Source: Escherichia coli
GTDB taxonomy: Bacteria; Pseudomonadota; Gammaproteobacteria; Enterobacterales; Enterobacteriaceae
NCBI RefSeq assembly: GCF_003334335.1
Contig: NZ_QOWQ01000040.1
Strand: one strand, 5' to 3'
DNA: 39,682 nucleotides
In this document: piece by piece, positions 12,001 through 15,000 of the stretch
How positions within the stretch are numbered: the stretch's first letter is position 1
How the letters are laid out: each line of letters starts with the position of its first letter
Position numbers: made by a program

Positions 12001-15000
12001 ATAGTTCACTGGATCAAGGAAGCCGCTTTGTCTGGCGAGCAGTCGGCCCTGATAGTTGGCTTCAATATCAGGCTTCGCATAGCTATCCAACGGTAATACA
12101 GCGATTTCTAACAACGTATCCGTTTTGCCATTGATAACGTTGATAACCTTCCCACCAAAGCGCGCTTGTTGACCAACATATAACCCCGGCTGGTTATGAA
12201 CAGCAACAAAACTTTTTTGAATATCAGGTTGGTTATTGCCTTTGATATTTTGCGGAATTGAACTACATGCGGCAAGCAAAAATGAAAGGCTGAGGATGAG
12301 TGCACCTTTTGTCATGTTCATGTTACTATCCTTATCAACAAATATTAAAACCATAATAGATATTTCTTTATAGTTTTCATCTGATTCTGAGGTGATATGC
12401 CTGATAGTAACGTAAACCTGTCTGATGTTTATATCCTTTCTGTTTAGGTGAACTCAGTTAATTTTGGGGCGTGACATGAATATCCATCACCCCATAATAT
12501 AGTGCATTGTTTTAAAAGTACATAAAATCTATTTTTATTCAATGATTATAAAGTGCTAATAATCAATATTATGGTATTATATTCTGGTAATGATTTGATA
12601 AGCGAATTCTTTTACCAGATGGTATTTCTATTTCCACCCCATAATTTATATCTTTTTCATTAGGCAGTGGCCTCTTTAAATAAGGCGTGTGTGACATTTT
12701 TTTTGGGTTAAGCGTCTCGTATTGAAATACTTCGAATTGATATTCAGACATTTCTGCCCATGTTTGAATTTTATTGTATCGGGAGAGTGTCGTAAAGGCT
12801 TTAACTTGCTTATAACATTGTTTTTGGAATTCTTGCTGATATTTTAATATGTCATTGTATGAAAGATTGGTTATCCTGGCCTCTAAAAATTTAATTATTG
12901 TCGAAGCAATTTCCGCTTTTGCTCGTAAAAGGTTGTCATTAATGGTTAATAATGTTGAAAATAAACCTTCGATTTGTTTGTCAAGATATTGTCCATCTTT
13001 ATATAATTTGGGGGTAGGGTGTTCTTTATGTAAAAAAATAGTGTCACCTAAATTTGCGTCAGTGAAATTTATATTAAGTAGATCTTCGAAATAAAACCTT
13101 GACAAGGTTAGAACGAACCCGGACAGGTTCTGTCCTGTCATATTGAAATCAATAAAGTTGGTTCCGGCAAAGACTTTCATCCTGTTTTTATTTTCACTGT
13201 GCTCAATATATAACTTCGTCATTTTTTGATACAGGCTTTGAATATCTTTTATATTAGTTGGTAAGTCAGCTCGTTGTTCAGCAATAAAATTAGTATCTGA
13301 AAACATGGTTTGGACACTGAATGTTATGGGTATTCCCTCTTCTACGCTAATTTTAGTTATGATTGCCTTGTCGGGTTTAGGATTAGCGATAACAATGATT
13401 CGACATTCAGCACTTTTGTTTTTTTCATATCTAATGTTATTAATCTGATTAAGTATTGATTGTGTCTGTTGCGTAAGTTGTGTCGAACTTATCGTTTCAA
13501 TGTTAGTAATAAGACTTACAAGTTGAGCCACAACTTTTGAGTAGTCTGCATTTGTATATGTAGTGTTCGTGTGGCACGCATTAATTTGTTGAAGTTGGTG
13601 TTGCGCTAAATCATATTGATCAGAGATATATCCTTCTCCAGAGAATGTGGAATTAATGGGTTGTTGTTCTTCCCAATTATCGCAAGGCCACTTCGGTGTG
13701 TCTGGCGTTTTAGCATTATCGGTATTTGTTGTGCAGTTATAAATATCGCCGTGATATGTATTTATTATACCTGGGGTAAAGTCAATTGACATAAAATTCC
13801 TTATTCATCATTTGTTTTATGCTAAGATGTTTAAATTGGATAATTAGAACAGGAATGGATTTTCTTCTACACACAATAAATGTAATGCGTTATATCTTCC
13901 TGATATAATTACCTTTGATTTCCCTTTTATCTCCACCCGGTAATATTTGTGTGTAAAAAAAGGGTAGTGATAGTATCGTAAAGGAAATCGTTAACAACTA
14001 TCAAAATGCGCTCATTTTAAAAAGTTATTATGTTCTCTGATAGTGTGTGAAGTGATTTTTTTTGTGATGTTTTAGATGTGTAATAATAAAATGGGTTAAG
14101 GTATCTTATAATTATTTAATAATTTGTTGTGTAAACCACTGATAAATCATAATCCAGTACGTCTTTAAACTACTGCGCTGTATCGCTGATAACTAAGCAG
14201 CTCACTGATACACCATGCTGGACGCGATAATTGGAATCTCACGCAGGGAGTACTGTGTAAATAGCAAAATCGCCTGATGCGCTACGCCTGTCAGGCCTAC
14301 AAATAACATACTATTCATCGAATTTTCATAACTTTGTAGGTCGGATAAGACGCGCCAGCGTCGCATCCGACATAAATAAAGCGCACTTTTCTAACAACCT
14401 GTGGGGGGGATATCGCCGCTTTATTTCAGGCGCTTACCCGCTTCATCAACCACTTTCTCGCCATCTTCCTTGGAGAATGCGCCTTTTTGCGCATCTGGCA
14501 GAATTTCCAGCACCACTTCTGAAGGGCGGCACAGGCGAGTTCCCAGCGGCGTCACCACAATCGGGCGATTAATCAGAATCGGGTGCTGAAGCATAAAGTC
14601 GATTAACCGATCGTCAGTAAATTTATCTTCCGCAAGGCCCAGCTCCTCATACGGTTCGACGTTTTTACGCAGCAGCGCGCGTACGGAAATCCCCATATCG
14701 GCAATGAGTTTGACCAGTTCATCGCGCGTTGGCGGAGTTTCCAGATAATGGATAATGGTCGGTTCTGTGCCGCTGTTGCGGATCATCTCCAGCGTATTAC
14801 GCGACGTGCCGCAGGCCGGGTTGTGATAAATGGTAATGTTGCTCATATCAGTATCTCATTACAAAGTGAAAGAGAGACGTAGCGCCAGCGCAGCCAGCGT
14901 CACAAACAGCACAGGCAGGGTCATGATAATCCCTGTACGGAAGTAATATCCCCAGCTGATAGTCATATTCTTCTGCGAAAGTACGTGCAGCCAGAGTAGC

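Follow-up and report, generated by a model that had tools for sequence, protein, structure and literature searches.

An uninterrupted yhiS gene with an AT-rich upstream region between the ars operon and the acid fitness island of Escherichia coli

Introduction

In Escherichia coli K-12 MG1655, the gene yhiS (b3504) is carried in RefSeq as a pseudogene, whose two fragments of 746 and 478 nt (1224 nt together) are split by IS5T/insH11, a copy of the insertion sequence (IS) IS5. The gene has been listed as one of the IS5 sites of strain BW25113 in work that gives CTAA and CTAG as typical targets of this element (PMC11677980), and its O157 copy, Z4907, appears in another study as an “unknown gene” at the edge of the acid fitness island (PMC9729726). 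Here, we describe a stretch of 39,682 nt from another E. coli genome (contig NZ_QOWQ01000040.1 of assembly GCF_003334335.1; the whole stretch is hereafter the window), in which yhiS is uninterrupted and preceded by AT-rich non-coding DNA.

The DNA around yhiS also belongs to a described class of regions, the promoter islands, which are AT-rich, bound by H-NS, poorly transcribed and situated beside presumed foreign genes (Panyukov and Ozoline 2013, PMC3661553). One of the 78 islands in Table 1 of that study is the 470-bp “3648929_470 arsC(+)/yhiS(+)”, and a second one is insH_11/slp. The former was bound by H-NS in all the chromatin immunoprecipitation studies that were used there, all of K-12, and was tied to genes predicted as foreign by GIST, by Nakamura et al. 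and by Lawrence and Ochman (PMC3661553). Further, yhiS is among the high-affinity loci of StpA (2026 preprint, 10.64898/2026.02.10.705075), and overproduction of YdeO, which controls slp-dctR, leaves yhiS expression unchanged in K-12 (PMC4222967).

We consider it highly probable that the window presents the ancestral state of this locus: a lone, uninterrupted, low-GC, dispensable yhiS, restricted to Escherichia and flanked, along with its AT-rich 5′ region, by the ars operon on one side and the acid fitness island on the other. The best account of the observations is that of a silenced, dispensable, Escherichia-only gene, whose product is predicted to be soluble and to contain a short β-helix core of pentapeptides. 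The finding is correct but ordinary, since annotation or publications already covered the intact gene as well as the AT-rich DNA, bound by H-NS, that lies 5′ of it; the new details concern the orphan status of the gene, its pentapeptide core, the evidence that it is coding, its high mosaic diversity and its repeated inactivation.

The uninterrupted gene and the empty IS5 site

By BLAST, the window and MG1655 are colinear over all 39.7 kb in opposite orientation (NC_000913.3, 3625401-3666281), from near the 3′ end of gadA (position 1) to yhhJ (position 39682). The aligned blocks are 99.94-99.98% identical (about 99.96% overall), with 16 mismatches and no gaps except for one insertion in K-12. 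On this alignment, the source of the window is a very close relative of K-12, because only 16 substitutions separate the two over 39.7 kb and no indel is found besides IS5T. ST167-type and other phylogroup A genomes match the region at 100%, and in a genome with such a match yhiS is annotated as a hypothetical protein of 407 amino acids (aa).

The yhiS coding sequence (CDS) occupies 12569-13792 on the minus strand as an intact open reading frame (ORF) of 407 aa with an ATG start, appears as such in the ORF list, and is colinear with both K-12 fragments; a Shine-Dalgarno motif, AAGGA (13798-13802, minus strand), can be read 5 nt before the start codon. Its neighbors are arsC (14421-14846) and slp (11755-12321), both on the same strand, and the order arsC-yhiS-slp recurs in 11 other E. 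coli loci and in a cryptic clade of Escherichia. The gene is thus assigned as the ortholog of b3504 by its near-identity with both K-12 fragments as well as by its position between arsC and slp.

The BLAST blocks meet at window positions 13047/13051, between which K-12 carries 1194-1195 bp of IS5. The excess of K-12 over the window, the 1195-bp IS5T plus a 4-bp duplication, is the sole structural difference in 39.7 kb. In K-12, the junctions read AAATTTAG followed by GGAAGGTGCG at one end of the element and CGCACCTTCC followed by TTAGGTGAC at the other. The window at the same site reads AAATTTAGGTGAC, with one copy of the target TTAG (13051-13048 on the gene strand, that is 13048-13051, minus; CTAA on the plus strand), which corresponds to CDS positions 742-745 in codons 248-249. 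Hence, the locus is without IS5 and does not carry the K-12-type allele, in which the element is flanked by a duplicated TTAG at these CDS positions; in the K-12 lineage, IS5 entered this very target. When IS5 and one TTAG are removed in silico from K-12 yhiS, an intact 407-aa ORF results in which 1 nt of 1224 departs from the window (R324K), and IS5 is therefore the only lesion of the K-12 gene.

We screened complete E. coli genomes for the whole K-12 junction with a 140-bp probe and found it in 352 of 5426 (about 6%); the two carriers listed have strain names of a laboratory style. Intact yhiS is found between arsC and slp in distant phylogroups as well as in the cryptic Escherichia clade. 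To judge from these sequences, an empty site is both the rule and the ancestral condition, because it is the common one, the K-12 junction being present in just the 352 genomes. Moreover, the clusters at 90% identity that hold YhiS, with 8964 and 2855 members, contain many full-length proteins of 407 aa along with partial ones.

These results bear out most of what a preliminary description of the window, made from the sequence alone, had said of this locus. It had stated that K-12 yhiS is split by IS5, on which RefSeq, our BLAST alignment and the literature (PMC11677980) concur. It had taken the window for an alternative, ancestral state that is not MG1655-type at yhiS, and the colinear blocks, interrupted only by the IS5 of K-12, agree with the ORF scan in showing a single 407-aa ORF with no IS sequence. 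Its placement of the gene where the acid fitness island meets the ars operon agrees with the bordering position given for Z4907 (PMC9729726). The alignment with MG1655 that it had called for confirmed that the element is absent and located its target site. Two ways in which it allowed that it might be wrong, an intact K-12 gene with the IS5 elsewhere and a 407-aa ORF that is a fusion artifact, find no counterpart in the data: IS5T lies inside yhiS, and 407 aa is the norm.

Coding status, constraint and distribution

The alleles of E. coli differ at a mean synonymous divergence (dS) of 0.20 (maximum 0.32) and a non-synonymous divergence (dN) of 0.084, giving a dN/dS of 0.42, and for one pair of alleles the excess of synonymous over non-synonymous change reaches p = 1e-6 in a Fisher test. 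In the cryptic Escherichia lineage, a syntenic yhiS of 410 aa is found at dS 0.56 and dN 0.20 (ratio 0.35), where the flanking genes show dS 0.18-0.29. We conclude from this pattern that yhiS is a real protein-coding gene, because a frame of 407-410 codons has been kept in DNA of 33% GC across a dS of 0.56 with a dN/dS of about 0.4. The strongest constraint falls on aa 176-325 (dN/dS 0.16-0.34) and the weakest on aa 126-175 (about 1.3 within E. coli) and aa 326-400 (0.5-1.1); hardly any variation is seen at the N terminus, in a core of repeats described below or in the C-terminal 30 residues.

The same comparison with the cryptic lineage shows a different picture for the neighbors of yhiS. The slp gene (window 11755-12321 against 6483-7049 of the cryptic-clade locus, L007) has a dS of 0.03 with no amino-acid change, and arsR, arsB and arsC, on the other side, have a dS of 0.18-0.29. 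The slp value suggests either a recent exchange between the lineages or an unusually strong constraint.

In a word-indexed search of 5.8 billion clusters, YhiS was matched only in E. coli, Shigella and unclassified Escherichia. A HMMER profile search of 1.84 billion representatives at 50% identity recovered one full-length representative and fragments, and a scan of 100,044 species genomes with a degenerate motif returned one contig only, the scan relying on a single motif that would miss diverged copies. That contig, of 409 bp and with a coverage of 0.77, is assigned to Ensifer sp. MPMI2T (NZ_SRXN01000179.1) and matches window 12442-12850, at the 3′ end of yhiS, with 99.8% identity; it is therefore E. 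coli contamination. No copy was found in the phage collection searched, and the three matches in the plasmid collection PLSDB (NZ_CP141089.1, NZ_CP134663.1 and NZ_OL790696.1), all of 4.8-4.9 Mb, are evidently chromosomes. As far as these searches reach, YhiS is an orphan of Escherichia alone, with no donor and no copy on a phage or plasmid coming to light.

An AT-rich, probably silenced islet

The whole interval 12355-14420 has a GC content of 33.9%, with sharp borders and far below its neighbors. Within it, yhiS itself stands at 33.8% and the yhiS-slp spacer (12322-12568, including the promoter region of slp) at 29.4%, against 46% for slp, 52% for arsC and 47.6% for the whole window; the AT bias that the preliminary description ascribed to yhiS is thus borne out. 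That spacer corresponds to the second published island, insH11/slp. The segment 13793-14270, at 31.4%, is among the lowest 1.4% of the 478-bp stretches of the window. The preliminary description had reported it as some 480 bp of extremely AT-rich non-coding DNA following yhiS: its composition was given correctly, and its position has to be amended, since it is 5′ of the gene. Its extent also needs trimming: the AT-rich non-coding core runs to about 14200 (13793-14200, 29% GC), and the arsC-proximal end of the 628-bp spacer is of normal GC and belongs to repetitive extragenic palindromic (REP) DNA at about 14272-14372. The core matches the published 470-bp arsC/yhiS promoter island, which on conversion of coordinates falls at about 13707-14176 of the window.

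The interpretation of this interval as a foreign islet silenced by H-NS matches the published K-12 data. What points to its horizontal acquisition is its composition together with the restricted distribution of yhiS. As extrapolated from K-12, the islet would be coated by H-NS and StpA and the promoter island upstream of the gene would be near-silent; because the K-12 literature describes the islet and the island in these terms, yhiS is probably kept off under laboratory conditions.

The BIME (bacterial interspersed mosaic element) just downstream of arsC (14272-14372) consists of two inverted REP elements (14336-14372 and 14272-14300), of what we take to be the REP consensus, and is the only part of the spacer that matches elsewhere in genomes. 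It also gives a weak match to the Rfam model naRNA4, presumably itself REP-derived. Over 12300-14450, Rfam returned no RNA family besides such weak REP-related matches and a consensus scan returned no terminator; a repeat search of the region yielded short chance repeats only. Next to the BIME, a stretch of 65 bp (14143-14207) is swapped in other genomes for a two-gene module of 1.6 kb (for example, at positions 4277-5851 of locus L005). Judging by matches at 85% coverage, roughly 40% of complete E. coli genomes carry this module, with the upstream region of yhiS on one side of it and the arsC BIME on the other. The module codes for a permease of 333 aa, weakly similar to the SO_0444/SaoE-like efflux family, and a divergently oriented ArsR/SmtB regulator. 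In its place, 65 bases unrelated to it are found in the window and in K-12, and the cryptic-clade locus is also without it.

Two other blocks of the window fall below 34% GC, namely 7358-8411 (the hdeD-gadE spacer) and 30120-33095 (yhiJ, the yhiL pseudogene and the yhiL/yhiM spacer). Both yhiL and yhiL/yhiM are also among the published promoter islands (PMC3661553).

The YhiS protein and its cryptic pentapeptide core

YhiS is a hydrophilic protein of 47 kDa with an isoelectric point of 6.0 and a hydropathy maximum of 0.9, and its N terminus is rich in Ser, Thr, Asn and Pro. No signal peptide or transmembrane segment was detected by sequence analysis, and no match to a family of Pfam, NCBIfam, PADLOC or PHROG was obtained. 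The preliminary description had recognized no domain in the protein, which holds insofar as family matches are concerned; what it missed is a cryptic core of ten pentapeptide units at aa 206-255 (13028-13177, minus strand), the part of YhiS with the highest conservation and constraint. The core places a hydrophobic center at every fifth residue (208 to 253), preceded by N or D in 6 of its 10 units (p = 9e-4), and a tandem run of ten units arose in 7 of 20000 shuffles, the threshold for tandem repeats having been set at eight units. Profile matches to many long pentapeptide-repeat proteins (E 1e-8 to 1e-4) cover residues 204-280 or thereabouts, the sole part of YhiS with similarity outside its own family, and a search of PDB sequences gave a weak match of the core to 2f3l (E 0.005). 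The IS5 of K-12 falls in the ninth unit.

If the core adopts the fold of known pentapeptide-repeat proteins, about 2.5 coils of a quadrilateral β-helix would result. YhiS is predicted to be soluble and cytoplasmic, possibly exported, with the β-helix perhaps acting as a scaffold for protein binding between disordered or helical N-terminal and helical C-terminal parts.

Recurrent loss of yhiS

Besides IS5 in K-12, several other lesions have inactivated yhiS, and 4 of the 11 sampled full-length E. coli loci carry an inactive copy. A deletion of 912 bp (window 12502-13413) is found in 1054 of the 5426 complete genomes. Two homopolymers are sites of 1-bp losses: an A8 tract at 12697-12704 (minus strand, codons 363-366), whose loss leaves 371 aa in the sampled O157:H7 genome (Xuzhou21), and a T7 tract at 13032-13038 (minus strand, codons 252-254), affected in DEC9B and 2020S05-013-31. 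Further, one strain has the nonsense codon Q185*, and other genomes show apparent insertions of IS1 and ISVsa5. By this comparison of sequences, yhiS is dispensable and decays repeatedly in other lineages.

In one locus with the 912-bp deletion that we examined (L006, NZ_CP195436.1), arsR and arsB are also absent, arsC is followed by dinQ and gor, and chuS-chuA adjoins dctR. In strain PCP07014 (NZ_CM129871.1; locus L015, 2712-3935), RefSeq/PGAP labels yhiS as “frameshifted” where an uninterrupted ORF of 407 aa is present, likely since the O157 form, truncated to 371 aa, served as the reference protein. At least one intact allele is thus mislabeled by automatic annotation, and counts of yhiS pseudogenes based on annotation only would therefore be unreliable.

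Several observations weigh against the account of yhiS as a silenced but genuine gene with a pentapeptide core. Matches to the H-NS consensus TCGATAAATT show no enrichment over the islet (5 against 3.5 expected), and promoter-like sites over 12300-14450 number 14 against 10.8 ± 3.5 in shuffled sequences by a simple consensus scan, a different program from PlatProm, with which the published islands were called. The data on H-NS binding and silencing stem from K-12, whose yhiS is already broken. The frequent pseudogenization and the dN/dS of 0.4 also fit a gene that is being lost. With regard to the core, the Pfam pentapeptide model (PF00805) stays below threshold in the window protein as well as in all 64 alleles. 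The structure check that the preliminary description had proposed gave no usable model: two AlphaFold runs, on alignments of 14 and 64 alleles, ended at predicted local distance difference test scores of 37 and 32; the search of PDB sequences yielded only weak pentapeptide matches.

The strongest competitor draws on several of these points and holds that yhiS is functionless, an ORF of foreign or de novo origin, silenced, preserved by inertia and on the way to loss, such that even the intact copy of the window would have no role. It gains from the number of independent inactivations and the broken state of over a third of the sampled loci, from the binding of H-NS over the islet in K-12, from the lack of YhiS homologs outside Escherichia in the searches made and from a dN/dS that is high for a bacterial gene. 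However, a frame of 407-410 codons would hardly have been kept by inertia at this GC content up to a dS of 0.56, in a separate Escherichia clade as well; and the synonymous excess, the dN/dS of 0.16-0.3 in the central 150 residues and the near-invariance of both ends and the repeat core likewise speak for purifying selection. We accordingly regard a functionless yhiS as unlikely, while still the most serious of the alternatives, and prefer to see it as a silenced and dispensable gene.

Allelic diversity

Among the 11 full-length E. coli loci, the nucleotide diversity (pi) of yhiS is 0.080 (maximum 0.151), against 0.006 for slp, 0.017 for dctR and 0.024 for arsC in the same genomes, a 3-13-fold excess over its neighbors. 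The zone of divergence, with slp and arsC as its limits, reaches its peak within the yhiS CDS, with 13-21 differences per 100 bp against 3-10 in the non-coding flanks. At least three deep allele families, differing by up to 15% in nucleotide and 28% in amino-acid sequence within E. coli, have been reshuffled into mosaics. Protein alleles go down to 72-78% identity within the species, and their mosaic make-up is visible. In the central part of the gene, the dS between E. coli alleles (0.4-0.7) comes near that to the separate Escherichia clade (0.6-1.0). The high mosaic diversity would reflect recombination among old lineages of alleles, on which selection is weak or conditional.

These same data invite the second alternative, that the diversity of yhiS is kept by balancing or diversifying selection since its protein meets a variable partner, be it a phage, a host factor or a competitor. 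The excess of diversity, the deep families and their mosaics, the peak inside the CDS above the non-coding flanks, the central dS close to that between clades and the local dN/dS of about 1.3 at aa 126-175 would all be in line with it. However, the overall dN/dS of 0.4 and the frequent loss fit a strongly selected polymorphism poorly, YhiS has no export signal, the sample is of 11 loci, and a fast evolution of H-NS-bound AT-rich DNA combined with introgression could look alike. We hold such selection to be improbable. Slightly less probable again is its fuller form, in which the deep mosaic families, about as old as the split from the cryptic clade, would be maintained under this selection as versions of a pentapeptide β-helix protein that contacts a variable external partner, the intact allele of the window being one functional variant.

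A third proposal, that YhiS is a pentapeptide-repeat substrate of type III secretion, akin to EspX or PipB2, stranded on the chromosome backbone, is very improbable: the repeat core, the Ser/Thr/Asn/Pro-rich N terminus with no signal peptide and a colinear but weak similarity to EspX1 by BLASTP (E 0.028 over 60 residues, with the motif G-x-F-x-T-L-x-x-I-x-D just after the repeats) would suit it, but a profile-profile comparison with the EspX1 family gave an hhalign probability below 1%, neither NCBIfam nor Pfam links the two, and yhiS is kept intact in commensal-type phylogroup A backgrounds near K-12, strains of which are not known to have a working injectisome. EspX1 itself was tried as a relative of YhiS and was ruled out by BLASTP, sequence-profile and profile-profile comparisons. 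In strain DSM 103246 (NZ_CP019944.1; locus L008, 1947-4567), espX1 is split by an IS5-family element of the ISKpn26 type, which, on the face of the sequences, parallels yhiS::IS5 in that both are AT-rich, Escherichia-only genes with pentapeptide-like repeats.

Comparison with described systems

K-12 is the exception at this locus, and work on yhiS, or on the adjoining H-NS silencing and slp promoter, should use a strain with the intact gene or a repaired K-12. The further results offer yhiS as a clean case of a species-restricted silenced orphan that is coding, unusually polymorphic and repeatedly lost, and that is suited to the study of silenced young genes; its unusual polymorphism is the sole aspect that might repay more work.

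With the pentapeptide-repeat type III effectors of E. coli, EspX1 among them, YhiS shares an AT-rich gene, genus restriction, the lack of a Pfam family and pentapeptide-like repeats, but it differs in that no homology to EspX1 is detectable (hhalign probability below 1%). With the pentapeptide-repeat proteins at large (PF00805; the Rfr fold, for example PDB 2f3l; Qnr/MfpA), it shares a period-5 pattern resembling A(D/N)(L/F)xx over ten units. Gyrase-protecting DNA mimics consist largely of repeats. YhiS, in contrast, has about 50 repeat residues in 407, which are sub-threshold in Pfam and set between unrelated flanking domains, with the fold being a predicted one.

Relative to yhiS of K-12 MG1655 (b3504), the gene and its position between arsC and slp are the same, with a single nucleotide in 1224 setting the two apart once the K-12 copy is repaired in silico, but the window has no IS5, one TTAG and a complete ORF of 407 aa. 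Likewise, in relation to the published promoter islands (PMC3661553), the interval from arsC to slp is, IS5T apart, identical to that of K-12 but for one substitution in yhiS. The window differs from that description in two respects: a simple consensus scan finds no clear excess of promoter-like sites in it, and its island precedes an intact yhiS, such that silencing here, unlike in K-12, would act on a functional ORF.

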